DNA of 64,000 nucleotides, from the IMG/VR virus record IMGVR_UViG_3300045988_082835, one strand, 5' to 3'. Position 1 is the stretch's first letter; each line of letters begins with the position of its first letter. This stretch comes from a virus. The notes beneath the pieces are model-generated. The model saw nothing but the letters and a program-made list of their open reading frames with translations. It was not told where the DNA came from and did not search any database. The position numbers and the translations under genes were made by a program. This document shows, in pieces, positions 1-64,000 of this stretch.

Positions 1-405
1 CCAACAAAGGAATACACTGGGAAAGAGCTAGATACATGGCCATATTGGGAAAGTCCTGATGGTGAGCTATGTGATTTTATTGATGCTGTACCTAAAGGAG
101 ACTTAATCACGGAAGGGTATGTTCCAATAACTAAATACTATTATAATGGCTGGAAATCAGCTATTAAAATTGGAGCATACGATAATGATAATAATTTAGT
201 TGATCTTGGCACAGTTAGCTCAGGTATTACGGATGATATGAAAAGGCTAATGACAGAGTTTCCAGGAAACTTTGTTGGACACGTAGTAGCTCTTGATTGT
301 ATGTCCATCAATAGAAAAGATCATACCCTACGACACCCTGTTTTCAAATGTATGAGGGATGATAAGGATGCTAAAGACTGTCTCATAGATGAAATTTTTA
401 AATAA
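1..405 (+). CDS. ATP-dependent DNA ligase, C-terminal OB-fold portion (5' end cut by window edge)
   Basis: Frame is open from nt 1 to TAA at 403-405. Translation ...GHVVALDCMSINRKDHTLRHPVFKCMRDDKDAKD matches the conserved ligase C-terminal motif (LRxPRF..R.DK). Confidence 0.6.
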   Translation, partial: PTKEYTGKELDTWPYWESPDGELCDFIDAVPKGDLITEGYVPITKYYYNGWKSAIKIGAYDNDNNLVDLGTVSSGITDDMKRLMTEFPGNFVGHVVALDCMSINRKDHTLRHPVFKCMRDDKDAKDCLIDEIFK

Positions 406-410
406 ATCTG

Positions 411-439
411 TTTGACACTAAAATAAAATTATTGTATTA
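411..439 (+). promoter_or_regulatory. sigma70-like promoter (TTGACA, 17-nt spacer, TATTAT)
   Basis: ttgacactaaaataaaattattgtattat lies upstream of the small CDS at 476. Confidence 0.45.
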
Positions 440-475
440 TATATTTGTAATTCAGGGATAAAGGATAGAAATTAT

Positions 476-682
476 ATGACCCGAAAATAGATGAAAAAGC
501 TCGCTAAAGAACTATATTAGTGTGAGCAAATTCACCAAAATGAATCTTCCTCAAAAGAGGAAAAATCCCGGGCTGAAAATCGAATTATGCAAATCACTAA
601 TTAGATTATGGCATTGAATGACGGGATAAATATTTTGCTAGAAATTGATGTTATGGTTCAAGATTTAGCAACACAACAATAA
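476..682 (+). CDS. hypothetical small protein (68 aa, three in-frame TAG)
   Basis: ATG with AAAGGA ribosome-binding site. Coherent ORF MTRKQMKKLAKELYQCEQ... only if TAG is sense; ends at TAA. Confidence 0.4.
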
Positions 683-712
683 ATAATATATTTTAAAGGA
701 GAATGTCTAATT

Positions 713-979
713 ATGGCAGCTATGAAAGAAAATACTCGTAAGGTTTTAGATTATTTAAAGGAAAACAATGATACTAATTTGACAGCCGCAGATGTTGCTG
801 AAGCTCTCGGTCTTGAGAAGCGTCAAGTTGATGGTATCTTTACTTCTGCGTTCCAGCGCAAGGGATTGGGCGAGCGCGTTCCCGATGAAGTAACTCTTGA
901 GGATGGTTCCCATCAGAAGGTAAAGTATCTTCGTCTTACCCAGAGTGGTCTTGATCTAGATCCCGACGCACAAGAGTAA
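713..979 (+). CDS. hypothetical protein (88 aa)
   Basis: ORF track; AAGGAG ribosome-binding site 8 nt upstream; followed by a terminator. Confidence 0.6.
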   Translation: MAAMKENTRKVLDYLKENNDTNLTAADVAEALGLEKRQVDGIFTSAFQRKGLGERVPDEVTLEDGSHQKVKYLRLTQSGLDLDPDAQE

Positions 980-984
980 TGTCT

Positions 985-1018
985 ATCGGGAAGAGTTTTA
1001 ACTCTTCCCGATTTTTTA
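985..1018 (+). terminator. rho-independent terminator
   Basis: cgggaagagtt-ttaa-ctcttcccg hairpin followed by a T-run. Confidence 0.7.
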
Positions 1019-1021
1019 ATT

Positions 1022-2213: not shown

Positions 2214-2840
2214 ATGAAGATTATTAAGCCAGATGTTGAACTTATTACACCTATTGATGGTGAAACAATCCTTAAACGAATTGAATAGTGTGGTAGAGTA
2301 TGTTATAAATCCGAGGATAAAATTACAGAAGATAGCGCTGTAAAATTCGTATAGAATATTATCAAGAGAGGCCATGAGGCGGTTCTTGAGCATTGTTCTT
2401 TTACCCTTAAATTTATTTGCGATAGAGGCGTAAGTCATGAAATTGTACGCCATAGATTGGCAGCTTATTGTTAGGAATCTACGAGATATTGTAATTACTC
2501 AAAAGATGGATTTGGAAATGAAATTACGGTAATTGAACCTTGTTATCTTGAACCAAATAGTTCAAAATATATACTATGGGAAATGTCTTGTGCGGAATCT
2601 GAAAAAAAATATTTTGAGCTTTTGTTCGAAGGCTGCACTCCACAAGAAGCAAGAGCAGTTCTGCCTAATAGTTTAAAAACTGAGGTAGTTATGACTGCGG
2701 ACTTGCGTGAGTGGCGACATTTCTTCAAGCTTCGTTGCTCTCCAGCCGCGCATCCACAAATGAGAGAAGTTGCAATCCTCGGTTTGAATAAAGTCAAGGA
2801 AAAGATTCCTGTAATTTTTGATGATATTACTCCTGATTGA
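2214..2840 (+). CDS. thyX: FAD-dependent thymidylate synthase ThyX (three in-frame TAG)
   Basis: MKIIKPDVELITPIDGE...HEIVRHRLAAYC(TAG)ESTRY. The ThyX RHRX7S motif is present with TAG at a typically Gln position. The C-terminal piece is ORF 2583-2840; ends at TGA. Confidence 0.8.
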
Positions 2841-6102: not shown

Positions 6103-6636
6103 ATGGCTAAACACATGGTAAAATGTTTTTACTGTGGAGAAGTATTTGATGCATCAACTACACCATACGTTAAACCAAATTCAAGACGTTACGCTCATAA
6201 GACCTGTGCGCAAACGGCCGAGGAAAATAAAACGCAAGAAGAAAAGGATAGACAACTATTAGAAAATTATATAAAGAAGTTATTTGGAATTAACTGTATT
6301 TCTCCAAAAATTAAAAAACAAATTGAAACCTTTAGAAAAGATAATAATTATTCATATACTGGAATGTATAAAACTTTAAAATACTTTTTTGAGATAAAAG
6401 GTAATTCTATTGAAAAGGCTAATGGAGGAATAGGAATAGTTCCTTTTGTCTATGATGAAGCATATCTTTATTGGAGAGCATTATGGGAAGCAAGAGAAAG
6501 AAATGAGCAAATAGATATAGGAAAGTTTATTTTGCCTGTAAGAGAAGTCCATATAGAACCTCCTCAACGGCAACCAATGAAACATATACGAAAGCTATTT
6601 ACTTTCTTAAATGAGGAGGAAGCGCATGAAGAGTAA
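6103..6636 (+). CDS. hypothetical zinc-finger protein, possible helicase loader
   Basis: ORF track; CxxC...HxxC N-terminus; 3' end overlaps the dnaB start. Confidence 0.4.
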   Translation: MAKHMVKCFYCGEVFDASTTPYVKPNSRRYAHKTCAQTAEENKTQEEKDRQLLENYIKKLFGINCISPKIKKQIETFRKDNNYSYTGMYKTLKYFFEIKGNSIEKANGGIGIVPFVYDEAYLYWRALWEARERNEQIDIGKFILPVREVHIEPPQRQPMKHIRKLFTFLNEEEAHEE

Positions 6637-8164
6637 TTATATAGATACAGCGGCGATTACTTAGGTAATTGGATGTGTATTCAATAATGCTTCTATTCTT
6701 GATGATACAGATAAGTATATAATTCATGAAGATGACTTCCAAGAAGATTTTCATAAGATAATTTTCGGTAGTATCTATAATATCCATCTAACAGGTAGTC
6801 AAGTTAATATAGACGCGATTATAGATTATCTAGCAAACAGACCAAAGTTTGACGCCATATTTAAGCAAAACAAGGGTGTAGAATATCTCCTTGAAGCATC
6901 GCAAAGTGCAAGGCAAGATACTTTTAATTATTATTATAATAGATTAAAGAAGTTTACTTTGTTAAGAGCATATAGCAATTTTGGTCTTGATGTTAGCTAT
7001 CTTTATGATCCAAATAATATTCTCGATACCAAAAAACGCCAAATGCAAGAAGATTGGCTGGATAATACTAGCTTAGTTGAAATAGCTCATGCTATTGATA
7101 CAAAAATAGATGAAATCAAAAGTAAGTACATAGAAGATGATCTTGGATTAGGCTATCAAGCCGGAGACGGAATCAATGAACTTATTAGTGATTTAGAACA
7201 GCATCCCGAAGTTGGTATTCCACTATATGGCCCGTTAATTAATACAGTAACAAGAGGAGCAAGATTGCGAAAATTTTATTTGCGGTCGGCGGCTACGGGA
7301 ACCGGTAAAACTAGATCTATGATAGCGGATGCGTGTAATTTTGCGTGCAATGAAATCTATCATGATCAATTTGGATGGATTAAAAACGGAACCTCTCAAC
7401 CAACCTTATTTATTGCTACAGAATAGGATAAAAGCGAAGTCCAAACAATGATGTTAGCTTTCCTATCTGATGTAAATGAAGAACATATTCTCAATGGTCA
7501 ATATTTTGAGGGTGAAAAAGAGAGGGTATTAAAGGCCGCAGAAATAATTAAACGCAGTCCAATTTGGATAGAAGAATTACCAGATTTTTCTTTACAAGAT
7601 GTAGAGAATAAAATAAAAAAGAATATTAGAGAAAATGAAGTTAAATATGTCCTTTTCGACTACCTTCAAACTTCGCTTAAAATTCTTGAAGAAATCAGTA
7701 AGAAGTCTGGAGGAATCAGATTAAGAGAAGATAATATCTTATTTATGCTCTCCACGAGATTGAAAGACTTAGCCAATAAATATGGTATATTTATTATGTC
7801 TGCAACTCAACTAAACGCCGATTATTAGAGTAGTGAAACACCAGATCAAAATCTATTAAGAGGCGCAAAAAGTATGGCCGATAAAATAGATGTTGGTATG
7901 ATTCTACTAAGTGTTACAGACGAGGACTTAGTTAAGTTAGATCCAATACTAGATAGTAACAAGAATTTATTGCGTCCGAATCTAAAATTATCTATCTATA
8001 AAAATAGACGAGGTTCGTATAAAGGAGTATATCTATGGTGTTCTGCTAACTTAGGAACTTGTAGAATCTTACCACAATTTTGCACTAATTGGAGACATGA
8101 GATGGTGAGCATTGAAGATATTCGAGTGATTGTCGATGAAGGGCCAGCAGCTTGGGAAAAATAA
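6626..8164 (+). CDS. dnaB: DnaB-like replicative helicase (three in-frame TAG)
   Basis: GAGGAGG ribosome-binding site. DnaB N-terminal domain (DFHKIIFGSIYNIHLTG...IDAIIDYLA) and RecA-like C-terminal domain (GTGKTRSMIADAC, LFIATE). ORF-track pieces 6959, 7448 and 7874 share one frame; ends at TAA. Confidence 0.8.
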
Positions 8165-8357: not shown

Positions 8358-9461
8358 ATGTCAAGATACTATGATAAAGATGAGTTAAAGAGTAAACTTG
8401 AATTAGAACAAATTTATGATTTACTCGAAGCGTGGGGTGGTGAGCCTGAATATGTAGATGGCGGGCTCATCTCCCAAACTATATGTCATAATCTCCCCGG
8501 TGAAGGATCGAGAAAGCTATATTATTACGAAAATACAAAACTTTTTAGATGCTATACTGGATGTATAGATCCTACTTTTGATATATTTGATTTATGTATA
8601 AAAGTTAAAAAAAAGCAAGAAGATAAGAAATGGGAATTGTATAATGCTATGGATTATATAGCAGGATACTTTGGTTTTAACGGTATAGAGCTAGAAGATG
8701 AAAAAGAAGAATTAGAAGATTGGGACATATTTAGAAGGCATAATATTCAACCTCCAAAACCCAAACAACCTATTTCTTTGAAGGAATATAATCCAATTAT
8801 TCTTACTCGTTTTGCTTATCCTAGAATTTCAGGATGGGAAGCTGAGGGAATTTTACCCGAAGTTAGTAGAAGAAATTTTATTGGCTATTATCCTGGCGGA
8901 GGACAAATAACAATTCCTCATTTCGATATTAATAATAGACTAGTTGGGATAAGAGGGAGAACATTATCTTCTGAAGATGCAGAAAGATATGGTAAATATA
9001 GACCACTTATGGTGAATAGATAGCTATATAACCATCCTTTGAGTATGAATTTGTATAATCTAAACCATAGTAAAGAAAATATAAAAAAAGTAAAAGCCGC
9101 AATTATATTTGAATCAGAGAAGAGCTGTCTTATGTATCAGTCTTATTATGGATATAATAATGATATATCTGTAGCTTGTTGCGGAAGTAGTGTATCTAGT
9201 TATCATATAGATTTACTTAGGTCTTTAGGAGTTAATGAAATTATAATTGCTTTTGATAGACAATTTGTTGAAATTAGCGACGATGAATTTAAGCGATTAA
9301 AAGCAAAACTAATTCATATTTATAATAAATATAGTAAAAATGTTCGTATATCAGCTATATTTGATAAAGGAATGATTTTGCCATATAAAGCAAGTCCTAT
9401 AGATAAAGGGCCACAAATCTTTGAGAAGCTATTAAACGAAAGGATAATCCCTTATGAGTAA
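8358..9461 (+). CDS. dnaG: DnaG-type primase (zinc-binding domain plus TOPRIM; one in-frame TAG at 9021)
   Basis: CHNLPGEGSRKLYYYENTKLFRCYTGC zinc ribbon. ORF pieces 8358 and 9039 share one frame and are joined by a TAG. A TOPRIM-like IIFESEKS...VACCG motif follows. Confidence 0.7.
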
Positions 9462-9744: not shown

Positions 9745-11481
9745 TTGGAGTATTCATTAATAAATCCAAGAAATTAGAATTATAGTGCTTTAGAGCAAGT
9801 ATTAGTTAATAGGGGTATTTAGTATAATGATATATAGCATTATTTAACAGTATCAGAAAAAGATAATTTATCCCCCTTACTTCTCAATAACATTGAGGAC
9901 GCTGCTAAATTAATTATTAAACATATTTTAAAAGACGATTCTTACATCTATATCTAGGTAGATAGCGACTGCGATGGATATACTTCTTCTGCATTGTTAT
10001 TAAACTACCTTCATGCACAATTTCCTTCGGCCATTAACAAGTTTATTTATAACTTTCATTCTGGCAAGATTCATGGAATAAAACCAGAGTTAATCCCCGA
10101 AAATGTTTCACTTGTTATTGCGCCAGATTCTAGCTCCAATGATTATCAAGAGCATGAAGAACTAGCTAATCGCGGAATTGACGTACTGGTCATAGACCAT
10201 CACTTAGCAGATAAAGTATCCGAATATGCCTGCGTTGTTAATAATCAGCTTTGCGATTATCCAACAAAATCATTATCTGGTGTAGGAGTAGTTTATAAGC
10301 TATGCCAATATATGGATAGTATTTGCGGAACCGCATATGCGGACGATTATCTTGATATTGTAGCAACTGGTCTTGTTGGAGACATGATGGATATTCGAGA
10401 TTTTGAAACTCATTATCTTATCCAGTAGGGGCTATAGAGATCGAGTCTCCGCAATCCATTTATTAAAGGTATGGCTGATAAAAATGTTTATTAGTTAGGG
10501 AAAGGAGATTTAACTCCTATAGGAGTAGCGTTCTATATTGTTCCTCTTGTTAATGCTATTACTCGTGTGGGTACTCAAGACGAAAAGTAGATTCTATTTG
10601 AAAGTATGCTTGAATGGAAAGCATATGATCTTATTCCTTCTACTAAACGAGGATGTAAGGGACAAGAAGAAACAAGATTAGAACAAGCACTAAGAGTTTG
10701 TACTAATGTTAAAAATCGTTAGACTAGAACTAGAGATGCAGAAGTTGAATGTATAGAGAATATAATCTAGGAAAATAATCTTCTGGAGCATAAAGTTCTG
10801 GCAATTAAATTAGATAATATGTCTATTGATAGAGGTATTACTGGGTTAATTGCTAACGAGTTAATGAGTAAATATAAACGACCTGTAGTTCTTCTTTCTA
10901 AAACAGAGCATGAAGGATTGGAGGCTTGGGAAGGGTCTGCTAGAGGATATGAAAAATCTAAAATGAAAGACTTTAGATAGTTTGTTAAAGAATCAAACTT
11001 AGTATTCCTCGCCGAAGGACACGCCAATGCTTTCGGTTTTGGTATTTATGATAAAGATTTTGAAAGTTTTATTTCATGGTCAGATAAATAGCTAAAAGAT
11101 ATAGAATTTTCTCCAAGTTACAAGGTAGATTTTATTTACTCTATGTCAGATATTAATTCTAAGGATATTCTCGATTTAGGCGATGCAAAATATCTTTGGG
11201 GTCAAAATATCGACGAGCCGCTTATCGCGGTGGAAAATGTTGCAGTAACAAATGATATGATTGGTCTCATGTCACGAGACAAGAATCCTACTTTGAAGAT
11301 TCAATTACCAAATGGAGTTACTTGCATCAAGTTTAAATCAAGCGAAGAGGAGCTAGATAATTTATCTAGCGAATTAGGTTGCGTGAGTATAAATTTGATT
11401 GGTAAACCAGAAGTAAATAGATACTTCGGTAGTGTGACACCACAAATTATTATTACAGATTATGAAATTATAAGTAGATAG
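9745..11481 (+). CDS. recJ: RecJ-like DHH/DHHA1 ssDNA exonuclease (TTG start, about 9 in-frame TAG)
   Basis: One frame joins ORFs 9994 and 11143. Motifs DSDCDGYTS, VLVIDHH and GHANAFGF (DHHA1) are present. Confidence 0.7.
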
Positions 11482-11499
11482 AAGTATTACTTTTAATGA

Positions 11500-17200: not shown

Positions 17201-18135
17201 AATATATATGGATTACCTGCGATAAGAAAAAGAGAATTACTTTACAAAACCTTCCTGGGTTAATGAGATATGATCTTATCCCCTATGAAGAAAAGTTTGT
17301 GATGCCGAAAAGAGTGTATGAATTTAATAGGTATCTAAAAGCAGAGTGTAAAGATCCTTACAATGTAGCAAAATATAAACTCGACGAAAGAGCAATCACC
17401 TTTCTCGTTGAAATTGATTGCGAGGATCTATTGGAAACAGATAATCTAGCATGGTATATTGACATAAAAGCCTGGGATAAAATTTATCAAAGTTACATGG
17501 ACGTATTTAGAAATTGGATCTCTGAAAATAAAGAAACGATTTTAGATAATTTAAACACCACCATCTTTATGGAAGATTGGAAAAAGTATGCTTCAGGGAA
17601 CATATCTTCTTGGGAAATGGAATCTCTATGTTTTTATTATCACGACCATGAGCTAGCGAATATTAACAATAGCAAATATGGATTTGTAGACTTCTTTAGC
17701 CTTCCAGAAGAACCTCAAGTAGATAAAGTATTTAAAAAAGGTGCTTCTTTAATTCCTATTTATAAACTGCATAAAATCTGCGGGACGTGCATTGCAAAAA
17801 ATAAGGTGAAGAGTACTGTATATCTTCTTACAACAACTGGAGTAGTAGCAGTTAAATTCAGACAAGAATACTTTGCTTTGTTTGATAAACAAACCTTCCA
17901 AAGAAACGCAGATGGAACAAAGAGAGTTGTAGAGAAGTCTTGGTTTAATAGAGGTAATATGATTGTTGTGCAAGGGATTAGACGAGGCGATGAATTTGTA
18001 ACAAAGAAATATGCAAGTTCTGGAGGCCATCAACTTTATCACATTGATGAAATTATCAATGGAACAGATCTAATCTTGAGAAGCGAAAGAAAACAAGGAG
18101 AAGATGAAGATGAAGATAGTAGCATTAATGGGTGA
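14233..18135 (+). CDS. dnaE: DNA polymerase III alpha subunit, DnaE-like (PHP domain N-terminus), read through a TAG at 17011-17013
   Basis: ORFs 14233-17013 and 17035-18135 are in the same frame, separated only by TAG. The PHP motif HSHTEF...ITDHESL is present; ends at TGA. Confidence 0.75.
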
Positions 18136-18655: not shown

Positions 18656-18721
18656 ATAATTATATTAGAAATCACAATATATAGTGTTCAACAAAAAATA
18701 TATTACAAGGAGTTGTATTAT

Positions 18722-41793: not shown

Positions 41794-41797
41794 AATA

Positions 41798-45793: not shown

Positions 45794-45806
45794 ATATAAT
45801 CACTCC

Positions 45807-48800: not shown

Positions 48801-49727
48801 TCGACCAACTAAATCAAGAGAAGAGATCTCGTTGGTAAATGAATTTCCTTGCGGGGTCGAAATATCTAAATAATATAAATTATCTGTTAAATCTTTCTAT
48901 TCAACAAACTAAATCTCTATATCCTTTACAAAAATGTTAGGTACAGTTCTATTCTCTTTATCTGTAACTACACCAGATTCCACATAACGATCATAGACAA
49001 AATTTTCTTCAAATAACTTAATCTATTTAAGTCCAGTTAAATAATTTTTTTGAGCCTTAATAACCACAGATTGCGGGCTGTAGACCTAAAAGCGATAGGG
49101 ATCTCCATTAAAAGAACTTAAATCAAGCTTATAAGAAACTATATCTCCGCTCTTTGTAAAAAACTATATATCTAAACCATAATTTCCTTTGGTATGTTCA
49201 CAATGGAAAGTAGTTAAGAAAGAGGCTTTTATTCTAATAAGCTCATTGTTATTTGCATACTATTGGAATAGTCCATGATATCCTTCTTCATTACCACTAT
49301 AAATAATCTACTAACTTAAATCACTATCTGCTGGTGCGCCTGCTACGACGCCCCTTTCCGCATCTTTGTCATAATCATACATTGTATCAAATGTTGGGCT
49401 TTTTTCTATTATTGAATTAGAAAGCGACAGCATCTCTCCATATGATAATGATTGTTCATTTGTCTTACAAACAATTCTTTTTCTTGCAGATAAATCATCC
49501 TGGGGAATAGTAACATATACAGTATCCCCTACTTTATACTGCTTTTTTACATCATCCGCAAAAGCAGAAACTATATTTCCAGAATATTTAACTTTATACT
49601 CTCCGCTATCAAGATTAACAATACTACTAATCTCTGCTGAAATAGTCTTATCATAAGTTAATTTTGATAGTGCTTTATCAACTAGAATATCTATCGTCTA
49701 AAAGATAGATTCAGAAGCAGTATTCAT
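45807..49727 (-). CDS. giant tail protein (1306 aa) with a C-terminal beta-helix-like GGWTIS repeat region
   Basis: AAAAAGGAGG ribosome-binding site at 49735. Single frame (length divisible by 3) containing ORFs 48009, 47637 and 46527. Repeats GEIGGWTIS. Confidence 0.5.
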
Positions 49728-49755: not shown

Positions 49756-49780
49756 AATAGGGGAGGAAATCTCCCCTATT
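49756..49780 (-). terminator. hairpin after the tape measure gene (terminator or attenuator)
   Basis: aataggggag-gaaat-ctcccctatt. Confidence 0.4.
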
Positions 49781-52700
49781 ATTCTTTTCTTCTATTCGCC
49801 CATTGAGTAGCATCATCCGCCAAACTACGAATAGCATCTTGAATTTCATCAGAAGATGTCGCATTGGGGAATTCAACTCGTTCAATATTTATATTTGGCT
49901 AAACCACATTATCTGTCGGCGCAATCTAGGTATTAGTTCCCAATCTAGATGCCATAATACTAGAAATAGATAGTGCGTTCCCGTCAAGAGTTTTCTCAAT
50001 AGAGGCTATAAAACTAGGTCCAAAGGCTCTCATAGCAGAGACCGCCGCCAAGATATTTTTCGTATCCTCTTGATTTAAAACTAACTCTTTTTCATGTAAG
50101 AAAGCTAATTTAGCATTATCAAATTCTCCAGTATATCCTCCAGTATCGAAGCCACTTATCTAACTTTCTTTTAGCCATCCATAAGCGGAATTATTGGACT
50201 GTACATGGATTGGATAAGGTCTACCCTTAGCTATGTTTGTTATTCTAACCTTTTTACCTGGACCGCGTCTACCAGCAGGATCAGTGCCATAAGAATCATG
50301 ATAGTAAGTTCCACCAGTATAAATAACTTCATCTCCTACTTCGGGGATTCCATTACCTCCTCCAGTTCCACTACTGGAAGATCCACTACCACTATTGCCT
50401 GAGCTACCTTTATCAGTATCAGAAGATTGACTTGAATCAGAAGAAGGCAAGTCATCTTTATCTATACTTCCTGCGCTTTCTATTGTGTTACCAGCAGCTC
50501 TAGCGGCTTCTTCAAGCGCTCTTATATATTCTCTGACTGAATCGGCCATATCTAAATACTCTTGACTTAAATCTTGAATAGTGCTTATCTATTCTAACAT
50601 CTAAGTAACGGCATTTGATCCAGCCTCAGAGCACAAATCAGTAGAAGTTGAAACATCGTCGATATAATCTTTTAAATCATCGAGACTTGTTCCAGTCTAA
50701 TCGGCTACTCCAGAAACAGTAGTTTGATAATCTTCCATCGCTCCGCTAGCTTCATCCATTGCATTAGATAAAAACTCTTCAAAGTTACCAGCATTAGCGG
50801 TCATATTGGCTAAGTCTTTCGCAAATACATTATCAAATAGGTCAATAAGTTTTGTATTACTTCCTACTATATCTTGAATCTACTCGTTATCTGATAGTAA
50901 CAAATCAATAATGCTAGAGCCAGAGTTAGCTATAATATCTTGAATTTCTTGACTTGTAATTCCAGTTAGGTCACTTACCTCGTCTCCCGCAACAATAGCC
51001 ATATCAATTAAAGCTTTATTGCCGGCTTCGGTCATATCCTTAATAGCGATCTATTTTTCGCTCTCTAAGTCCTTAACCTTCTGCGTATAATAAGAATAAA
51101 TTTCTTGCGCGCGAGCAGATCTTTCTTCATCAGTCAAGGTCATATCAGAATAGATTTCTTTTATCTTATCTTGACACTCTTGCCAAGTAGAAATAATCTC
51201 TCCTGTAACATCCTCTACCTGTTGCTTTGCTATATTATACCATTCGTTCTCCGCATCAAGTAAATTCTGCTCTGCGTCAGCTATCTGGCTCGCATCTGCG
51301 GTGTATTGATAATTCCAGTTACCTTGACTATCTCTCACTAGTCTAAGTTGATTTTTCGCATTTTGAGCATCTTCAAGTGCCATCTAAGCCTAAAGAACAT
51401 TATACTTAGCTTCGAGAATTTCTAAATCGTATTCAGATAAGGTATTGTTCTCTCTACGTATATCAATTTCCTCTTGTAGCTATTTTAACTAATCTTTCAT
51501 CTTAGAGTTAGTAGCCTTATCAATATCCTGTTGTAGTTTATTATACCAAGAAGATACCTCATACGCTTCATTTACTTTATCTAAATATCTATCCTCTTGT
51601 TCGATATAATGATCGAATTTGTCTTGTAGTAGATCTAATCCTACTCCACCAGAAACAGCCTATCCAAATTCATATACTGCTCTTTCAATAGCTTGAGTAT
51701 ACATCTCCTAAGCAGTCTCCATAGCAGCTTGCGCGGAACTTAACATAGCCTCTTGTGCTTCATTAAATTCTTCTAGTAGAGCATCTCTATTAGCTTTTAA
51801 ACCATCATATGCAGGATCGGTTTCATCTCCGCCTAATGCATCTAATGCAGCTTGAGCTTCCAATAGTTCTTGACGGATTCCGTCATACCATTGTTTATTC
51901 AGCTATGCATTGGCGACCTAAGCCTTCATAGTTTCTTCGCTTACTTCTTGAAGCTATTCAAATCCTTCTTCGGTCTTATATGTAACTCCCTAAAGAGCAT
52001 ATAATTCTTTGATGAGCCCTAGAACAGATTCATTATGATCAAGCTAATCAGTAAAAGCAGCAAATCTTTCTGACGCGGCATCTAATGCATCTGGTAGCAT
52101 TTCTTCAAGACCTTCTACCCAATCAAGCAAAGCCTCTGCGGTAGAAATCATTTTACCTTGTAAGTCAGATAACTTACTTACAATCTCATCAATATTAGTC
52201 GCATCTGTGGCATTAGCTAATTCTTCCTGATAACTTTTAAGGGCTTCTTCATAGCTCTTGATGATTTCAATGTTCTCGTTCATACTGTTTTTATCAATAC
52301 GAGCGACTTCCATTCCATGAGTTAGCTCATCACCAAAAGATTCTGCTATTTGTCTTGTTAGCTCATTAACCGCATCTTTAGCATCTTTTATATCTATCGC
52401 AACTTCAAGTTTATATTCAATCTAATTTAATCTATTATCTGCAATATTTCTTTCTAGCTCTTCTTGCTCATCTTTTACATCTTGAATCTTGTCAAGAGTT
52501 TCTTCATATTGAGCTAAAGCGTCCTAACGAGCCTAGAATAATTCATCAGCAACTTCTTTTTGTAATTGCCAACTATCATATTCTGCCTATCTAGCCTCCT
52601 ATTCATCTTTAGTAAGACTGCTAAACATTAATAAGAAAGCGTTGTAATCGGTTAAGAAGTTATTATTATAATCATCAACAATAGATTGAAGAACGTCTTG

Positions 52701-55700
52701 ATAACCTTCAATTTCTCCATTTTCATCAAAAGTAAGAGAATTGTTGAATAATCCTTGAAGGTCTGATCTATCTTTCTCAAGATAGGTCTCAGCCTCATCA
52801 AGCATCTTATTATAATTAGCTTGCTGTTTTTCTAACTCTTGAAGCTCTTTCTAATAAGCCTATAATTTCTTCGCTCCATATGCTCTATCTATATTATTAC
52901 CAATATCATCTAATAAATTATTCTAATTCTCAATCTCACGAGTTATTTCATGGTATCTATCTTCTATATCTTCAAGAGTTTTTTCATCTTCGGCATCATA
53001 TTTTGTACCTTCGTTATCTCCGCCAGAATCTTTATTTCTAATATTGTCTGTTGCTATTCTATTCGGATCTAATGCTCCATCAGGATCAAATGCAAATGGC
53101 TCCTAACCATAATCAAAAATACCATTCTATCCAGATCCCGTACCCTAAGAAGATAAATATGAACCAGCTTCTTTTAGAGCATTAGTAAAATTACCAATAG
53201 CATCTCCGCCCTCGCCGGAAATTTTTAATCCTAGAGTGGGAAGCTCAAAAGGAAGATCCGCTTTGCCAGCTAGCCAATCATCTATCTATAATTTTCCCCA
53301 TGATTTTACATATGGAGTAAAACCTAAATCATATTCAAAATTAGAAATTAAATCTCCTAGTGCTGTTAGAACAGCCCCAGCCGCCTATGAAGTTGAGCTA
53401 ATTGTATTAGCACTCTCGGACATAGTAGAATTAATAACGGCTCCAGCGATACTAGCATCAGTGGACATTGCTTGCATTAAAGCATCGGCGCTTGTATCTA
53501 GTCCATTTGCTAGCGTTACTCCCTAATCAAGAACACCCTAGAGAATCCTTTTATAAGATTCGTTATTAGTCTATTCTAGTCCTACGAGCTATTGTCCAAT
53601 ACTTGATACCATTGCCTAAAATTCTGTCGCAGTAGTATCGAAATTATTATCAATGGTAAAATCTATCGCTCCAAAGCTATCAGCATAGTTTAATAAGTAA
53701 TCGTAATTATCTACTAAACTATTTACAATTCCCATCATGTCTTGGGCATCGCTCACTTGTTTTTCCCAAGTATTTAAATTAGATATATCAGACATGGTTC
53801 TGGCATATTCTTCCTCAGAAATTGTAGTTTGATCTACTCCATCTTTGAGTTCCCAAACTCCGTCTGTATTTTTTGTAATATTCTAATTTAATTTAGACTA
53901 AGCCGTAATTAATGCTTTCGTGGCAGCGATTGTTCCCTCATAGTAATCATCCATATTGATGGTTCCAGATTTAAACTTTTTATTTAAATCTATCAGTCCA
54001 TCCCCTATAGACCCGGTTGCAGCGACCAAAGTAGCTTCATATAAATCAGTTTCTTCTATATTATCGTCAATTTCTTCGTTTAATCTATGAAAGCCTGCAT
54101 TTATATTACTTAATCTTTTATTAATCGTATCAAAATATTCTTGGGCAGATATTGCCCCCTCCTGATACGCTTTCGCATTATCACTAAGGGCCTATGTTCT
54201 CTCTTTAAACAATTCTACATCAGTTTCACTTGTAAACGTATAATCATTTATTGCATTTGAATCACTGGCTCGCGATACTAATTCATCCCACATATTAATA
54301 TAATTCTAGAGATAATCAGTATTTACCCCATATTTTTCTTTCATAGATTCTATTGTAGCATCAAGAATTTGCTCTTCTTGTCGTTCAGAATCTAAAAATG
54401 TCTAAAGAGACTAATTTGTTAGTTTATACGCATCTCCAACTTTAACAATATACTAAGCATATCTTTCATCTGCATTAATGAGTTCTTGAACTTGATCCAT
54501 GGTTAGATAGCCTTCTTGATCCTTATATGACTATAAGGCAGATTCAAGAGCACTCTAACTATTATTTAATTCTTCCAATATAGATTTTAAGTCGTCTATT
54601 CCCTTTACATTTATATTTATTTCATTAATTTTATAATTATCTAAAAATTCCTATAATTCTTCAACCGCATCAAAATTATCTATATTGACATCCATAAGGA
54701 TTTCCCAATCCTCATTTGATAGAGAATCAAAATCAAAATCACTAAATTTACTTTCTACTTTTTCCTTTGCTTCATCTACTCTGCTATCTACAAAAGTTAA
54801 AAACTCATCTACGCTGACTCCAGCTAACATTAATTCATTTTTAATGGATTCTGTTATCAAACCAGAGGCTGCACTAATATCACTACTAGCCAAAGTGCTA
54901 TAAAGCTAAGTAGAAATCTATTTAACTGATTGGTTATCTAAAATTGGTTTTAATATAACCTCTTCATATTCACTTTGACTGCCATAAAGATTTTTACGAA
55001 TAAGAGATAACTGCTCCTGCATTGAAGCTATCATTTCTGGATTATACTCAATAACCCCGTCAGTAACAGATTTAATATATGCAGCATAATCATCTTCTGC
55101 TTGCTATATAGCTTCAGAATTGTCAGTTACCCACTGTGCCGTAATCTATTCATTTTGAGTAACCCAATCTTGATACTCTACTAAGTAATCACGATAGGCA
55201 TCAGAATTTTTATCAAGGCCCTAAGTAATACTATTAAACCAAGTGTCTGCATCTACGTACTAATCTTTATAAGTATATCTATTCTATTCAAGTACAAATT
55301 GAGCATTTGGATCATTTAAATCCATGCTCTATTCTAACTCTTTAAACCAGTCCTAGTCTCCATTGTATTCATTCCAACTTCTCCACTAGGTTAAATCTGG
55401 TCCTCCTGCCAAACTCTTAGTAGATTTATCATAATTCTCTTCGATAGTTTTTGCCTAGGCTTTTTGCGCTTCTTCTGTTAACTTCTCTTGTAACTCAACC
55501 TATCTCTACAAAGAAGATTCTGCCTATTTAAGTTTTTCTAATTCTTCTTGTTCGACTATACTTAAAGAATCCTAATTATTTAATTCTTCTATTCTATCTT
55601 TCGTTGTCTATAATTCAGAATTTAAAGATTCTAATGCAGATTTCTAATCCTCATAAGCCTAGGTAGCACTAGATATTTTTTCTCTAGCCTCTTCTTCCGT

Positions 55701-58478
55701 AACAATAATGAGAGAAATAACATTAACAAGTAAGGTTACTCCCAAAGTGATTAACCCAATAAGTGGTAAAGCAGTTGAGATAGCCGCACCAACAGTAGTA
55801 ATACCAGCAGCCGCAGTTTTAGCTGAAGCTCCAACTGTTAAATACGATATTGCAGTTAAACTATTTTGTAATGCCTGCTTTTTAAACAAGGTAGAGATTG
55901 TTGGTAATAACATTCCAAAGTTAGTAAGAATAACTGTAAAATCTTCAACAGTAAACTCTCCCTCTTTCACAGAATTTGTAAAAGTAGAGAACATGGAATT
56001 AATACTTGTCATTCCCATTGTAACTTGCGATAAAGTGGTTCCTACTTTAACCAATGTCTCAGCCCAGTCTAAAGTAGCATATCTGTTATTCTTTAACCCC
56101 TCACTAATTTCTTTTGTTTTCTACTGTAATAATTCTAATCCCTATCTAAAAGCCTCAGCACTAATTTCATTATTCTTAAAAGCTGCTACAAGACCACTTA
56201 GATCATTTTTAAATTTAACAGAACCATCACCTAAAGAAGTAATAACTCTATTTAATGCAGCAACGTCTGATTCTGCCCCTTTTAATGCTTCCTAAAACTA
56301 CTAAGAGGTAGTAAGATATTCTATTATCTCCTAATTTGTTGCATCTTGAGCACCTTCAAAAAGATTTAGGCTTCTTACTAAATTAATAGTTTCTTGAGAG
56401 ATTTCATTGGTTCCAGAACCAACTAATTTCTATACTTGCTAAAACTTAGAAAGACTTACGCTCGCCACTTTTAATTTGTCAATTAAACTCTAAAGGGCTT
56501 GCTAATTTGTCTTTGAACTATAGAGAATTTCTGTTTCTATGTCCTCATAAAAAGAAAATTTATTTTCATCTTCTAACACAAGCGCCGATAGTAGATTATC
56601 CTTCCATTTTTTATTGGGAACTAAACGCTCAGACAAACTATTTGTATAAGCTGTAATAAGTTCATCTGATTTGCTAACCTACTACCCAATTAAATTAACC
56701 TATGTCTATAAAACCTTTACTCTATCTAAATCTTGTTGTAAAATACCAGCCTAGCGCTCAGATAGTTGTGTGGCCGCAGCGGACGCTTCTCCTTCAAGCT
56801 AAACAATCTAAGCTTGAGTATTTACCATCTATCCCTAAATAGTATTATCAAGTGCGGATTTCGCGATAATATCAGCCATCTATGCGGCTTCAGTTCTCAA
56901 AGTTTGCGCTCTATCCTTTTCTCTCTATCCGATAATACCAAGATTAGAAGCAATATCTCTCATTCCTTGCGCAATCTTATCACCAAAAGCCTTATTCATC
57001 AGTAAAGCAGTTGTTGCTAAAACGCCAGACATTCCGCCTAAACCATCAATAATATCAGCAGTTGTACTTAAAATAGGACTAAGAACATCATCTACCCCAA
57101 TATAAAAATCAGGATTTATTAAACTATCATAAATATCTTCCGCGGATGCTCTTACTCTATCTCTTGCCGCCTCCCAAGATTCAGCATAAATATCTGCTTG
57201 TTCTTGTAGAGATCCTTCTGCTCCATAAGAACTCTCCAAATTTTCCTAGAAGAAATCCCAGTTATCCATAAGAGCAATAAGACGAGTATATTGACGTACT
57301 CCAGCTACAGTCTGTGCTAATGCAATCTATTGATCATTAGATAGAGTTTCCCATTTCTCTCCCATTTCATCTAATAAAGTATCCATAGTCTTGATTTCTC
57401 CATTAACGTCAAAGATGTTAATTCCAACTTTATCAAGAGCCTAAGAATATTTATTTAGAGTAGTTCCATCATCAAGTGTTTCTCCAAGATTTAAGCCCTG
57501 AATACGTGCAAATAATGTTCTAAATGCAGTACCTACAGTATTCGCAGATTCACGAGTTGTAGCAGTAACAGTAGCAAGCGCAGACGCGGCATACTCATAA
57601 CTCAAACCTACCGTCTCTGCAACTGCGGCAAACTGCTAGATACCTTCTGAAATTTCATCAGAGCTTGATGCAGTATCTGCACCTAAGCGCACCATGACGT
57701 CTGCATAATACTCAAGACTTTTACTTCCATCATAGAAGTTATTCCATACCGCAGTTAACTAGTCAGATGCAGTCTAAGCGCTAACACCCGCGGCGTTTGC
57801 CATTTTTATAGTAGTTTCAGTTCTATCTAAAACTTCCTACTCAGTAAGGCCCTACTGATAGTAAATCAGAGCTGCGTCAGTATAATCTACTGTAGTTGTA
57901 CTCAATGCCTTAGCTGCTTCGTTAGCCTACTTAGCAAAAACAGCCATATCCTCGGCAGAATTTTCAGTAACTATACGAATGTTTGTCAGAGATTCATTTA
58001 AATCTTTTGCATAACCATAAGCTGTCTCTAAAGAGCCAATAAAACCCTATAAAGTGCTTGCTGTAATCTACCAACGAACCGTATTTTTCATTGTAATCCA
58101 CAAATCAGACATTAACTTATTAGTTCTGATTAACGGAGTTTCCGCCGCCATAATAGCCTGAGAAAGATTTAAGAATGTTTCTTGCCCCTAAATTCCCAGT
58201 TTGCTTAGTTGATTATAATAGTCTGTTAAAGTCTTTCCGCTTTTTACTAAACTATCATTAAAAGCAGTCAAATCTAACTTACCTGAATTTCCATTAGTAG
58301 CCATCTAAAGATTACGGCTCAATTCAAGGGCCGCCAAAGATGCCTACTGAAGTTCACTAGAAATAGATGGCTAATTGCCTAATTTCTATAAACTATTTAT
58401 AACTTCATTAACAGAGGTTTTTAGCTGACTCGCGTCAGCGGTAAACCCAATCTAATAGTTTAATCTTTTATTAGCCAC
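49779..58478 (-). CDS. tail tape measure protein (about 2900 codons, dozens of in-frame TAG; GTG start)
   Basis: All seven ORF-track fragments between 50160 and 57239 lie in one frame. Extended coiled coils, a transmembrane block (55659-56054) and a C-terminal motif are all of tape-measure type. Stops between fragments were not all checked. Confidence 0.55.
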
Positions 58479-59182: not shown

Positions 59183-60619
59183 TTAATATGCGTATTTAGA
59201 TAGTATATTATTATTTAAAGTTGCTGCAATAGTTAATTTATTTATAACTCCATTGACTATATTACTACGGGTGATTGCATCTAATATGTTTGCTCCAGAA
59301 TTGCCATACCACTTATTACCCAGAGCGCCTTCTCCACCAATAGAAACCACTTCATGAGCACTATTTCTAACAATATCATCACAGATATTATTAATAATTC
59401 GCTAGATTGAAAATACTCTACCATTAACTATAATAAACTATCCTAAATGACCCTTCTATGAACTAAACTCACTAGACTGAATCCACTAATTAAAGAAGGA
59501 CGCTGCAACAGAAGCCCGTATATTATTAAACGATTCTTCAAAATCAGCTCCAGTATATCTATGAGCAATCATATTATAAGCAAGATACTTCTCTGGCTAA
59601 CCAGAAAAATATTCTCCAACATTCATACTTGAAGAAGCAGAAATTTTATTCTAAGACATTTTCTTATTTTGCCATCTTGCATTTACATTTGTCCCTATCT
59701 CTATATTAAAAGTCTGATTGCCCTTGGTTACTTGCAAACTAAAGGTATCATTATTAAATATATTTGTAGTACCTTTAGACTTAGAGACATTATTCTATCC
59801 TTTATCAACCCATCGCAATTTTCCACCAGATTGCGCGATTACCTTATCTAATATACTATCCGCGGTATTAACTCCTATTGATATACCCTCTGCAACTATC
59901 GCCTAACTAATCTAATTTCCAATAACCCTTCTAAATATATAAGCAATAGTATTAGCAAAAGAACGAGAGTTTACTGATCCCTATTCACTTAAACGAGTAA
60001 CAGCCCTGTTTAAAGAATCTATTACATCTTTTGCGATATTTATATCTCCTTTGCCAACAGCCATAACATAACTTTGCTATGCCTAATCTATCTAAAAGCT
60101 AGTTCCTATTAGCTATCTTCCAATCTATGTTAAAGCATCAAGAACATTAACATTTATCATATTCGCTTTCGTTAAAGCTGATATAAGTAACCTAAAGAAA
60201 TCATTCACTCTCTATATTTCCGGTGTACCAGTTGATAACAAGTTATTAAAGCTTCCAACCTATTGCAATATAGTATTATAGTTTTCAAAATCTACCTATC
60301 CACCAGCTAATTCAATACCCTCATTAATACCGGCGGCAATCTAATCAAGAGTAGAGTCTAATAGGGTTCCTATCTCTAGATCACTTAGAATCTTTAATCC
60401 ACTGGCTGCGGAAGGCGCTTTTAGCTGCATCTATTCTTGAATTGAGGAGATCTAAGCCTCAATTCCCGCGGTCTATGCTTTATTTACTGCCTATTGATAC
60501 TATGCGCTGAATAAGGTATTCGCTGATTCTACGTCGCCATATTCTCTCAAATGGCTACTGTGATATACAATATAGTTAATAGACCAACGCTAAACATAAT
60601 CATAAATATCAATATCCAT
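59183..60619 (-). CDS. structural protein with extreme TAG density (about 35 TAG in 478 codons)
   Basis: AAGGAG ribosome-binding site; length divisible by 3; MDIDIYDYV(Q)RWSINYIV...; no ORF-track entry at all. Confidence 0.35.
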
Positions 60620-60635: not shown

Positions 60636-60673
60636 TATAAAAAGAAAAAGGGAGGACATTAAGTCCTCCCTTT
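60636..60673 (-). terminator. rho-independent terminator
   Basis: aaagggaggac-atta-agtcctcccttt plus a T-run on the minus strand. Confidence 0.6.
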
Positions 60674-60676
60674 AGA

Positions 60677-62071
60677 TTAAATTCCGTCATCCTCGGTGAC
60701 AGAGACTAACTTATTGCGAATGCTAGTCTTAGCTTTTGCTGCGGTAGATGTAGCAAAGCTAAGTTTGTTGTTAATGGTATAACTCTTTTCAAAATCACCA
60801 TTAATCTTATTAATCTTTGCGGTAATAGGAGTTGCCTGATCTTCGCTGGTAAGAATTACAAGCAATCCTTGAGCCAACTCTTCGCCACTAACGGTTTGAG
60901 TCTTTGTATTACCTTCAATTCTTGGGTCTGTAGAGAAGTATTTCTCATAAGCTGGGTTTGTAGTTACCACATTATATTGGGTGCTATCGCTCTCTACTGG
61001 AATTTGTAGGCTGATCTGAGCAGCTTCTGCGATAGTATCGCCACAGGCCTCAGTATCATAAGCTTTTCCTGTTACATTACCGGTAACATCAAGCTCTGCG
61101 GCTGTAGCACTATTAGATACGAAACTTACAGTCACATCAGCAGCTTCGCTCTCATAAGTGCCTACATTCTCAGAACATGGCTCACGAGTTTCCTCGGTCT
61201 CGCCGCTTTCATCAGTAATTACTTGAATTGCAGCCAATACCTTATGGGTTTGGTCGAACTTGGTGTAATCAGGGAAAGCATCCATTGTAAAGGTGAAGGT
61301 AGAAGGATCTCCGTTAGCTGCCATGCTGAATGTGAAGTTACTCTGAACTTTACAGTTAGGAATGATAAATTCAGCAGGCATATCCACGCCATCGCTCTCA
61401 CGACGGAATAGAGTTGAAGCCTCAAGATAATAGTTACCACCAAACTTATCAGCAGTAATTTCAATCATTTGTGCTCCACCGGTACGTTTTACATAGTAGT
61501 CAACTAAAACAATGGTTCCCGCAGGAAGTACACCCGCATGAGAATAACAAGTTAAAGTTGTTTTGCCATCTTCTGTGTAACTTACAGAAACAGGAATACA
61601 AGGCTCGGCATTAACCTGACCATCATCACCTAAAACCATCACAAAGATGTCGGCAGAACGATGATACATTTCATTATCATGGTCAGTAAATCCATTCCAG
61701 CAAGCCTTGTCTGGAACAATAATAGTATTGGCAGTCTCAACTTCAATCTGAGAAGTCTGGTGAACATAGATAGGAGCTTCTTTTGTTGCATCAAGTAGGC
61801 CAGCACCAGAAAGAATAGAGAAGCTTTCTGGAGAGAGTAGAGCATCTTCCATTGTAAAGGTTAGAGTACGCTCACCTTCCCAAGCAATCAATCTAGAATA
61901 TCCACGTCCGCCCTGCGCATATACTGTTGTTGCAGCACCCTCAAGAGTAGAGGTTCTTAAAGTGTCGAAATATAAAACTGGTTCATTTTTGTAGAACTTA
62001 CGATTACCAAGGGTTTGATAACTCTTCGCACGAAGCACTACATCGCAAATCTCACGAATACCAAAACGCAT
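60677..62071 (-). CDS. major tail protein candidate (464 aa, no TAG)
   Basis: ORF track; TTAAGGAGG ribosome-binding site. Lies after three connector-sized genes and before the chaperone and tape measure genes. Higher GC than its neighbours. Confidence 0.45.
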   Translation of the reverse strand: MRFGIREICDVVLRAKSYQTLGNRKFYKNEPVLYFDTLRTSTLEGAATTVYAQGGRGYSRLIAWEGERTLTFTMEDALLSPESFSILSGAGLLDATKEAPIYVHQTSQIEVETANTIIVPDKACWNGFTDHDNEMYHRSADIFVMVLGDDGQVNAEPCIPVSVSYTEDGKTTLTCYSHAGVLPAGTIVLVDYYVKRTGGAQMIEITADKFGGNYYLEASTLFRRESDGVDMPAEFIIPNCKVQSNFTFSMAANGDPSTFTFTMDAFPDYTKFDQTHKVLAAIQVITDESGETEETREPCSENVGTYESEAADVTVSFVSNSATAAELDVTGNVTGKAYDTEACGDTIAEAAQISLQIPVESDSTQYNVVTTNPAYEKYFSTDPRIEGNTKTQTVSGEELAQGLLVILTSEDQATPITAKINKINGDFEKSYTINNKLSFATSTAAKAKTSIRNKLVSVTEDDGI

Positions 62072-62085
62072 GAGCTAATTCCTCC

Positions 62086-62811
62086 TTAATTTTTAGGATG
62101 TATATCTCGCATCCATGATTCAACTGGTTTATCCGGTTTGCCGCCTGCAAGACGAATCCGCAGATCAACATCCCATTCAATAAATGCATTATATCTTTCC
62201 ATCAAGTCAAATATCTAAAACATATTGAGATTAAGGCAATCCTCCAAGCTCATTGTCTAAGATCCAACTGTTAGGATAGATACATAACGTGTTAAAACAC
62301 TTTCATTATTTCCCTTATTCTTTATTTCCGCTACTTTACGACGTCCCCGCATTAACTTCTCTGCTATTTCTTTTGCTCTATCATTCGCAGGATTATAGAT
62401 AACATTATTACCTTGAAATATGCTATTTACACATAAGACCTCTTTTAATGTATCTTGGAAAATATCAAAGTTATTATCATCTATCAAAATAGGTTGCTTT
62501 TCATTCTATTTTGTTAAAATAATAGAATTTCTCGTAAATAGTGGTATATAGTCAGGAAATAATAACGTAAGAAGCATGATAATTGCATCTTTCTTATCCT
62601 TATCCTAAGATTGTTCTAACACCTTCATCAATACTTGAAAATTAGTTAAGGATGATGAAAGAATTTCGTCCTATATTAATGATTCTTTGTCTAAACAAAG
62701 ATATTGAACTGCCATAAAAAATTTTGTCTCGCCTATAAGAGCTATTTCTTTAATGGTGGGAACATGAATAATAAGTTGTAATTCAGGAATGGGAATATCA
62801 ATCCCAGCCAT
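62086..62811 (-). CDS. head-tail connector / tail completion-sized protein (241 aa, about 5 TAG)
   Basis: Contains ORF 62257-62487; length divisible by 3. Confidence 0.35.
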
Positions 62812-62827
62812 TAAAGCTAATCTATAA

Positions 62828-63364
62828 TCAGACAAGTGGATTTACCTTATCCTCATTACCACGAATTGCAAGATAGGTAAGAGACAAACCGGCAAACTCT
62901 TCATCATAAATATACGGAACAGCGGATACAAATTCAAGTTCTCCTATCCCAGTTAAATGAGTTTTATCCAACATTGAATCTATCTCTCCGGCTATCCTAT
63001 AAGGACGCAAATCATAATCTCCTAAATCCCAATTATCATAATGACATATAATATCTATTCCAAAGGTATTATCTCTATATTCAGGATTAGTAGAATTTCT
63101 AACCATCGTACCATAAATTAATCGCAAATATGATTTTTCTGGCCTATCTACTTTAATTTTAGGCACAGGAGAAATTTGCTATGTTTCAATCATTTCCTTT
63201 ATCATATCTCCGGTAACCGCAGGTTTACTTTTCCAATCTCTAGTATTATAAGCTAATAACTTTAAAACATTCTAATTAGAAAGTATCCTCTCCATAATCA
63301 ATGAAGCGTCTTTCTAAATTCCCAATAAACTAGATTTAGGATATTCATAGGTATTCTTTTTCAT
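62828..63364 (-). CDS. connector-sized hypothetical protein (178 aa, two TAG)
   Basis: ORF 62828-63166 extends upstream to the ATG MKKNTYEYPKSS with an AAGGGGTGA ribosome-binding site. Confidence 0.4.
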
Positions 63365-63376
63365 TAATTTCACCCC

Positions 63377-63945
63377 TTAGAACAAAGACTCTACCACAAT
63401 AACTTTTTCTAGCGTAATATTTTCTTTTTCCCATATTAGAGTGAATTGACCATGAGTAGATTTATTCCATACTAAATCTACTGCTTTATTTCCATTCGGA
63501 CATAAAGTTACAGGGAAATCTTTTTCTAGTATTGACCAAGTTCCATTAGGTTCTTCAACAGAATAAGTCTCTTTTATTAAGGGCTTAATGAAAGTTTCAC
63601 CTAATATTCCACTTTCTGGAGTAGGATCAACAGGCTCAAAAACTAATCCATCTTTCATACTATTCTCAATATCGTCTGTATCTCTATTGATATAGTCCTC
63701 TTCTGCATTGACTTCAATAACATTTCTCATGCTAATATCGTCTGGAGCCTAGACTTTCCAGCACCGTCCCGCAAATAGAAATTCTTTATATCTATCAAAA
63801 GCATGAATTGTTTTCTCATTTCTTGGCATGAGGATATTTAAACTTAAATTAGGTTTATCTAATCTCTCTTGATTTTTCTGAATAGATTCTATCTAAGTTT
63901 CAACTGGCCCTCTAATTGCCGCCCATGTTTCACACCATTTTCCAT
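63377..63945 (-). CDS. connector-sized hypothetical protein (about 189 aa; start approximate)
   Basis: ORF 63377-63730 extends upstream across two TAGs to the ATG MENGVKHGRQLEG. Confidence 0.35.
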
Positions 63946-64000
63946 CCTAATCTTTAAATTTAATCTTATATCTACAACGTCTTATTTCTCCTCTAAAGTA

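Follow-up and report, generated by a model that had tools for sequence, protein, structure and literature searches.

Is TAG a stop codon in the viral DNA held as record IMGVR_UViG_3300045988_082835 in the IMG/VR database, or is it translated, and if so, into which amino acid and by what means? The stretch of DNA analyzed here comprises 64,000 nt (hereafter the window; G+C content 34.7%), and an earlier note, made from its letters without database searches, had proposed that TAG is reassigned throughout the genome, most likely to glutamine (Gln). The results presented here agree with this proposal, as coding density, domain continuity, exchange of TAG with CAA and CAG, substitution likelihoods, and a tRNA with a CUA anticodon (referred to as tRNA(CUA)) all point the same way. 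Judging from its gene content and contig matches, the source is an SPbeta-like siphovirus with a genome of ~141 kb that occurs in human-gut metagenomes, and the window represents ~45% of that genome. We propose that this gut phage very probably reads TAG as Gln by means of a tRNA(CUA) that it encodes itself, and that the standard code is used by its host, presumably a member of Bacillota.

TAG as a Sense Codon

Coding density was compared between codes in two ways, by the coverage of stop-to-stop open reading frames (ORFs) of at least 100 aa, and by a greedy set of non-overlapping genes. Stop-to-stop ORFs cover 53% of the window under translation table 11, 59% when TGA is read as sense, and 95% when TAG is read as sense. 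The greedy set comprises 100 ORFs with a median length of 100 aa under table 11 (60% coverage) and 61 ORFs with a median of 201 aa when TAG is sense (95% coverage), while reading TGA or TAA as sense results in 106 ORFs (64% coverage, median 103 aa) and 119 ORFs (79% coverage, median 117 aa) respectively. The comparison of tables 11 and 15 suggested in the earlier note therefore gives a rise from ~60% to ~95%. With TAG as sense, 45 of the 62 ORFs in the window contain in-frame TAGs (354 codons in total), in line with the at least 40 genes claimed before, and every ORF ends at TAA (53) or TGA (9). Frames of 2905, 1308, and 1305 codons are free of any TAA or TGA; such long frames are not expected by chance, because TAA and TGA together make up ~4–5% of off-frame triplets.

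Pfam matches, obtained with proteins that were entered with X at TAG positions, run continuously over TAGs in ThyX, DnaB, RecJ, DnaE (HHH_6), and others, and so do PHROG domains. These matches, together with alignments to PDB structures, place the TAGs inside conserved domains and not at the gaps or ends of homologs. The single TAG reported for DnaE, the single one in the primase-like gene, and the three in DnaB were all recovered (Table 1). The tape measure was likewise found to be one frame of ~2900 codons (2899 exactly), and a public gene table calls it as a single gene with a PhageMin_Tail match; the seven fragments into which the standard code was said to split it did not hold, as its 103 TAGs, if taken as stops, would cut it into 104 pieces, 14 of them at least 60 aa long. 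The statement that a standard-code reading would fragment every essential replication and structural gene was also too strong, since NrdD, the YorF-like gene, the tail tube, and 14 other ORFs contain no TAG. Sites with TAG in the window are retained as TAG in relatives, at 275 of 281 sites at 99% identity and at 74 of 133 sites at 81% identity, and in the public collection, the gene tables for such contigs already take TAG as sense. The TAG pattern is confirmed as real and as far beyond chance.

Assignment of TAG to Glutamine

In alignment with the recoded locus L003 (81% nucleotide identity), the 133 window TAGs lie opposite 74 TAG, 19 CAA, 10 CAG, 6 AAA, 4 GAG, 3 AAG, and 3 GAA codons. In the reverse direction, TAGs of L003 lie opposite CAA (31 times), CAG (10 times), and GAA (7 times) in the window, and the window's CAA codons lie opposite 47 CAA, 31 TAG, and 11 CAG codons in L003. 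TAG and CAA therefore exchange as freely as synonymous codons do, despite the two nucleotide changes involved. The codon comparison of the early region with its relatives gives the same pattern of exchange between TAG and CAA or CAG.

Amino-acid substitution was then estimated empirically from these alignments, and each candidate residue was scored for TAG by likelihood. Gln ranks first in all five comparisons with relatives, two of which involve standard-code relatives (L151 and L010), and the log-likelihoods combined over the five are −435.5 for Gln, −625.0 for Lys, and −651.6 for Glu, with Trp far lower. Further, a protein alignment to 32 standard-code loci, dominated by the tape measure, rules out Trp and hydrophobic residues for TAG.

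Individual proteins with solved homologs were also compared. In the small serine recombinase, three of the six aligned TAGs lie opposite Gln in the structures of Sin/Bin3, and two of these correspond to both Gln residues of the N-terminal motif YARVSSxDQNLxRQ. The ThyX TAG at 2472, which the earlier note had placed at the usual Gln position of the motif RHR...Q.S, does lie opposite that Gln in structures of the Mycobacterium/Corynebacterium (actinobacterial) type, and opposite Glu in the Thermotoga structure. The same residue check had been suggested for Dut and NrdG, where it was less informative: the Dut site is variable in PDB homologs (E, T, or C), and the TAGs of NrdG fall outside the part aligned to PDB homologs. 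Taken together, the comparisons support a decoding of TAG as Gln in this phage (translation table 15).

The Suppressor tRNA and Its Surroundings

No tRNA gene was found in the window, in the ~20 kb upstream (L084–L090), or in the ~8 kb downstream (L001). The tRNA with a CUA anticodon that the earlier note had suggested looking for elsewhere in the genome was found by stepwise walks along the near-identical contig IMGVR_UViG_3300045988_075249 (132,915 bp, hereafter contig 075249; 99–100% identical to the window over the overlaps compared), and the rest of the tRNA cluster was mapped likewise. ARAGORN predicts a single tRNA(CUA) in this contig (L156 11984-12058), ~27 kb upstream of window position 1. 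Its 75 nt form a canonical cloverleaf with G18G19, a standard T-loop, discriminator base G73, and an encoded CCA end (60 bits against the Rfam tRNA model). The suppressor shares its strand with the early genes and sits inside a cluster of ~30 tRNAs that precedes the replication module.

At this slot, tRNA(CUA) is present in all five recoded contigs sampled. At least 11 loci share the Ser-Leu-Cys neighborhood without tRNA(CUA); two of them are from contigs shown to be standard-code in the tail module (112927 and 3300024272_001728), the code of the other loci not being established. Among the contigs sampled at the slot, the presence of the suppressor tracks recoding.

Other RNA-related genes surround the suppressor. 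The upstream part of contig 075249 (L200 1-18472, L156 1-13000) encodes a transfer-messenger RNA with the tag peptide DNDYFENYLAA (Rfam 120 bits), and a ROOL RNA (Rfam 350 bits) lies between the phage's two tRNA-Gln genes. Between the tRNA cluster and the window (L112 3081-9551, L090 1816-8049) is an RNA-repair-type gene set consisting of an RNA ligase, a Thg1-like 3'-5' polymerase, an AAA_33 kinase, two metallophosphatases, and an RlaP-like nucleotidyltransferase, with a DUF2828/DUF7788 protein and a weak vault-repeat protein nearby. A speculative link may be drawn between the Thg1-like enzyme and the suppressor's unpaired 1:72 end, described below. Related phages carry CUA suppressors of 88–91 nt with a long variable arm (L114 979-1069, L138 2396-2484, and L082 12445-12532, the last being from Phass-1, a named relative discussed below), two of them directly 3' of a tRNA-Ser(UGA) gene; these long-arm suppressors may insert a residue other than Gln.

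Distribution of TAG Among Gene Classes

Recoding extends through the genome, as had been claimed, but its use is not uniform. The share of TAG among Gln-family codons is 19% in the early block on the plus strand, 28% in the retroelement island, and 49% in the late genes on the minus strand (early vs. late, Fisher p = 2e-18), and some genes avoid TAG. The tail-tube gene is TAG-free amid TAG-rich flanking genes. Similarly, the YonB-type major capsid gene just outside the window (L001 4497-6856 region) has no TAG among 13 such codons, and its two neighbors have none among 8 and 3 respectively. Avoidance in the tube gene extends to 24 recoded relatives, in which TAG accounts for 5 of 236 Gln-family codons of the tube gene (2%), vs. 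1868 of 6127 (30%) elsewhere in the same loci. We infer that, in the virion proteins of highest copy number, selection has acted against TAG as a codon read more slowly or with more leakage.

Proposed Mechanism and Alternative Explanations

The mechanism that we propose starts from the canonical tRNA(CUA) carried by the phage in its tRNA cluster. The tRNA would be produced early, charged with Gln by host enzymes, and would then outcompete release factor 1 at UAG. As TAG is sparse in early and replication genes, most of their products could be made, at least partly, before suppression sets in. In low-copy late proteins (tape measure, baseplate, fibers, portal, and terminase), TAG makes up about half of the Gln codons, and assembly of full-length virions would need the suppressor. 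Control of timing is assumed here after a published model. The absence of TAG from the tail tube and major capsid genes suggests that suppression may be slower or less efficient than ordinary decoding. Going further, TAG might act as a graded, copy-number-sensitive expression dial, with 5'-end maturation of the 1:72-unpaired suppressor by the Thg1-like and other RNA-repair enzymes as the actual code switch; we consider this extension rather unlikely.

Several observations weigh against the proposed mechanism or fit it poorly. The reassignment to Gln is deduced here from sequence. In the alignment to the 32 standard-code loci, the log-likelihoods are −289.5 for Glu, −290.4 for Gln, and −293.8 for Lys; these residues are not separated in the tape measure because its sites show little conservation and a single mutation separates TAG from each of CAG, GAG, and AAG. 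Position 1:72 of tRNA(CUA) is unpaired (C:U here, and U:U in ~81%-identical relatives). Compared with the phage's own tRNAs, the suppressor is 68% identical to tRNA-Trp and 69% to tRNA-Gln(UUG), and its anticodon loop, CUCUAAA, differs from that of tRNA-Trp, CUCCAAA, only at the middle base of the anticodon; its sequence by itself thus appears ambiguous both as to the residue charged and as to a Trp-like or Gln-like origin. No release-factor gene was seen in the ~110 kb examined, and no aminoacyl-tRNA synthetase among the ORFs examined near the tRNA cluster, ~20–30 kb beyond the terminase lying outside these searches. The early block includes TAG-rich genes, namely RecJ with 13 TAGs and two GIY-YIG genes with 11 and 7, and a clean early/late switch is therefore an oversimplification. 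Finally, relatives in GTDB are phage-sized contigs in metagenome-assembled genome bins of Oscillospiraceae, Eubacterium, Clostridia, and other taxa, which point to no single host.

These observations bear on three other explanations. TAG could be a sense codon for Trp, for Lys or Glu, or for pyrrolysine, and the Trp-type anticodon loop would fit the first of these, just as the tape-measure TAGs, opposite which distant standard-code relatives have E, Q, or K with about equal frequency, would fit the second. However, TAG lies opposite TGG at none of the 133 sites in the comparison with L003 (among the substitutions listed) and at one of 42 in that with L146, while TGG itself is kept in 44 of 45 cases. 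The E. coli suppressor su7, a tRNA-Trp whose anticodon is changed from CCA to CUA, inserts Gln; the phage suppressor resembles it in having the tRNA-Trp anticodon loop with the middle anticodon base changed and in G73, and differs from it in being overall equally near to tRNA-Trp and tRNA-Gln. As to Lys and Glu, the two-step exchange of TAG with CAA is frequent (19 and 31 events at 81% identity), and the combined likelihood puts Gln ahead of Lys by 190 and of Glu by 216 log units. Pyrrolysine is the residue printed by ARAGORN, which names the tRNA 'tRNA-Pyl', a label that we set aside as the program's conventional name for a tRNA with anticodon CUA. No pyl genes were seen, and the fold, a canonical cloverleaf that has G18G19 and a standard T-loop, is unlike that of tRNA-Pyl. 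A residue other than Gln is, on this evidence, very improbable.

We give hardly any credence to a second explanation, in which the TAGs are true stops in a decaying, pseudogenized, or mis-assembled element, or in genes that are produced as fragments. Table 11 does fragment the sequence, and the GenBank record of Phass-1 is annotated accordingly, but only TAG breaks the frames, which otherwise run without TAA or TGA over the lengths given above. Identical TAGs are kept in independent assemblies from many samples, the substitutions at TAG sites resemble those of a constrained sense codon, and one small protein of the window is present in 2623 blocks of the public assembly collection, the phage therefore being very common. 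The third explanation, that Gln is the meaning of TAG in the host's own code and the phage merely matches it without any switch, draws on the many taxa among the bins, which do not pin down a host. We know of no bacterium with this reading of TAG. The phage encodes its own tRNA(CUA), while standard-code relatives in the same group are without it; gene classes differ by degrees in how much TAG they use; relatives with tube proteins 70% identical to that of this phage are standard-code; and standard-code hosts have been predicted for TAG-recoded phage clades (bioRxiv 10.1101/2021.08.26.457843). A recoded host thus seems quite improbable, and if true, it would remove the difference in code between phage and host but not the reassignment. 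We therefore retain decoding of TAG as Gln by the phage's own suppressor in a presumed standard-code host.

Comparison with Known Recoded Phages

Recoding of TAG to Gln in gut phages is already established. It has been surveyed by Borges et al. (bioRxiv 10.1101/2021.08.26.457843), Gln at TAG has been shown by metaproteomics in crAss-like phages (PMC9523058), and the recoding has been described for ~136-kb SPbeta-related siphoviruses typified by Phass-1 (Babkin et al., 2023; PMC10607447). Phass-1 (OQ749652), which NCBI places in the 'Caudoviricetes code 15 clade', is the nearest named relative of the phage studied here, with tube proteins 53% identical. Both are human-gut siphoviruses, and Phass-1 has a genome of ~136 kb, a tape measure of ~3150 aa, and genes for DnaE, NrdD/NrdG, ThyX, and Dut. 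Its TerL, tape measure, and ~41 ORFs contain TAG read as Gln; for its major capsid and DnaE genes, no in-frame TAG is reported (PMC10607447). Among its 36 tRNAs, which include tRNA-Sup-CTA, one is 84% identical to the suppressor described here; tRNAscan-SE assigns Gln to one of the Phass-1 suppressor tRNAs, which of the three not being stated (PMC10607447). The two phages differ in that Phass-1 has three suppressor genes, two of them beside NrdD, whereas a single one was found here, far upstream of the window and not beside NrdD. They also differ in DnaE, which has one TAG in this phage. Members of the proposed genus Phassvirus share 80–86% nucleotide identity (PMC10607447). In a distant-mode blastn search with the 6.7-kb DnaE-NrdD region, Phass-1 was not among the matches listed. 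Because of this lack of a nucleotide match, the 53% tube identity, and the different placement of the suppressors, the phage is not a Phassvirus and belongs at least to a different genus.

The clades surveyed by Borges et al. (crAss-like, Lak, Sapphire, Agate, and others) resemble this phage in reading TAG as Gln in hosts predicted, and here presumed, to use the standard code, in having suppressor tRNAs, in the enrichment of recoded codons in structural genes and their variability in replication genes, in the different codes of close relatives, and in AT-rich standard-code relatives that prefer TAA stops (bioRxiv 10.1101/2021.08.26.457843). The present phage differs in that no 'code change module' of release factor 2 and aminoacyl-tRNA synthetase was seen in the parts examined, and in that recoding is not clearly highest in its lysis genes. 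Among relatives in the tail module (L010, L017, L022–L033, and others), with tube proteins 52–70% identical to that of this phage, some genomes are fully standard-code and others TAG-recoded, and the genes of the standard-code ones end in TAA (133), TGA (28), or TAG (14). The patchy occurrence of recoded and standard-code relatives, the preference for TAA stops, and the enrichment of TAG in late genes match published observations.

SPbeta uses the standard code. The phage shares with SPbeta and siphoviruses of the Enterococcus phage EF1 type the YomU tube, YomV, YomW, YonB, YonD, YorF, YorH, and a YorL-like DnaE. Its DnaE gene gives nucleotide matches to SPbeta yorL, and its tube protein is ~40% identical to that of EF1, in which no stop-codon recoding was found (Babkin et al., 2023; PMC10607447).

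Gene Content of the Window

The ENA metagenome contig ERZ1310451 NODE_29 (141,359 bp) matches the window at 100% identity (13.3-kb overlap), and the window corresponds to approximately positions 13,381–77,380 of this contig. SPbeta-type families among the precomputed Pfam hits are YomU_Tube, YomV_2nd, YomW, YonB, YonD_N, YorF, and Phage_SPbeta_YorH. The plus strand from 1 to ~25 kb carries replication and nucleotide-metabolism genes, namely the end of a DNA ligase gene and the genes for ThyX, YorF-like, AAA_24 ATPase, DnaB, primase-like, RecJ, RecD-like helicase, DnaE, NrdD, NrdG, and Dut. The late genes (tail, baseplate, tape measure, and YomU-type tail tube) are on the minus strand, from ~25 kb and at 36.5–64 kb, and are interrupted by a plus-strand island at 31.4–36.5 kb that carries a diversity-generating retroelement (Table 1). 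This retroelement is complete and, like the genes around it, is written with TAG as sense; the mismatches in the core of its variable region (VR) and template repeat (TR) are all at TR adenines.

Table 1. Features of the window, with TAG read as a sense codon.
Feature	Position	Strand	Description	In-frame TAG and other Gln codons
GIY-YIG gene	1022-1933		Pfam match	11 TAGs
ThyX	2214..2840	+	Pfam Thy1 (5e-47)	TAGs at 2286, 2352, 2472
DnaB-type helicase	6611..8164	+	N- and C-terminal DnaB domains in one frame	TAGs at 6662, 7424, 7826
Primase-like gene	8358..9461	+	Weak Toprim match below the Pfam cut-off	Sole TAG at 9021
RecJ-like exonuclease	9745..11496	+	DHH, DHHA1, and RecJ_OB in one frame	13 TAGs
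DNA polymerase III alpha (DnaE/YorL-like)	14233..18135	+	1300 aa	Sole TAG at 17011, within the HHH_6 match
NrdD anaerobic ribonucleotide reductase	18713..20902	+	729 aa	0 TAG; 10 CAG, 21 CAA
GIY-YIG gene	23441-24106		By sequence inspection only	7 TAGs
Small serine recombinase	28658..29359	-	Sin/Bin3-like (4e-35)	7 TAGs
Complete diversity-generating retroelement	31360..35397	+	Comprises the next four rows	
Target gene of the retroelement	31360-33162	+	Immunoglobulin-like repeats, C-terminal variable region	8 TAGs
VR	33046-33148	+	103 nt; 89% identical to TR	
TR	33769-33871	+	103 nt	
Reverse transcriptase of the retroelement	34180-35397	+	YMDD motif	6 TAGs
Tail/baseplate/fiber block	36541..49727	-	8 ORFs	32 TAGs in the 1306-aa, 27 in the 929-aa, and 17 in the 636-aa ORF
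Tape measure protein	49779..58478	-	2899 codons	103 TAGs; 79 CAA, 21 CAG
Late protein	59183..60619	-	478 aa, no assigned function	25 TAGs; 10 CAA+CAG
Tail tube protein	60677..62071	-	YomU_Tube; phrog_2729	0 TAG among 15 Gln codons

The Sin/Bin3-type serine recombinase sits within the late-gene block and adjoins two minus-strand genes of no assigned function (29394-30080 and 30084-31073). A possible role for it is as an invertase, switching between tail-fiber variants.

Genes of the homing-endonuclease type differ between nearly identical genomes. The gene at 4493-4978 (161 aa), for which inspection of the sequence alone suggests an HNH-like type, is missing in L084, L087, and L089, and an additional GIY-YIG/NUMOD gene is present in the near-identical locus L088 (12615-13277).

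Implications

For this widespread gut phage, annotation needs translation table 15, without which two thirds of its genes are broken, and the GenBank record of its nearest named relative, Phass-1, is still fragmented in this way. The SPbeta-like lineage to which it belongs is well sampled, with recoded and standard-code relatives coexisting, and makes a good system for studying the capture of a stop codon. Besides the reassignment itself, the most useful additions are the location and odd acceptor end of the suppressor and the lineage-wide avoidance of TAG in high-copy virion proteins. This avoidance in the most abundant proteins of the virion is a measurable clue, and suggests that suppression carries a translational cost.

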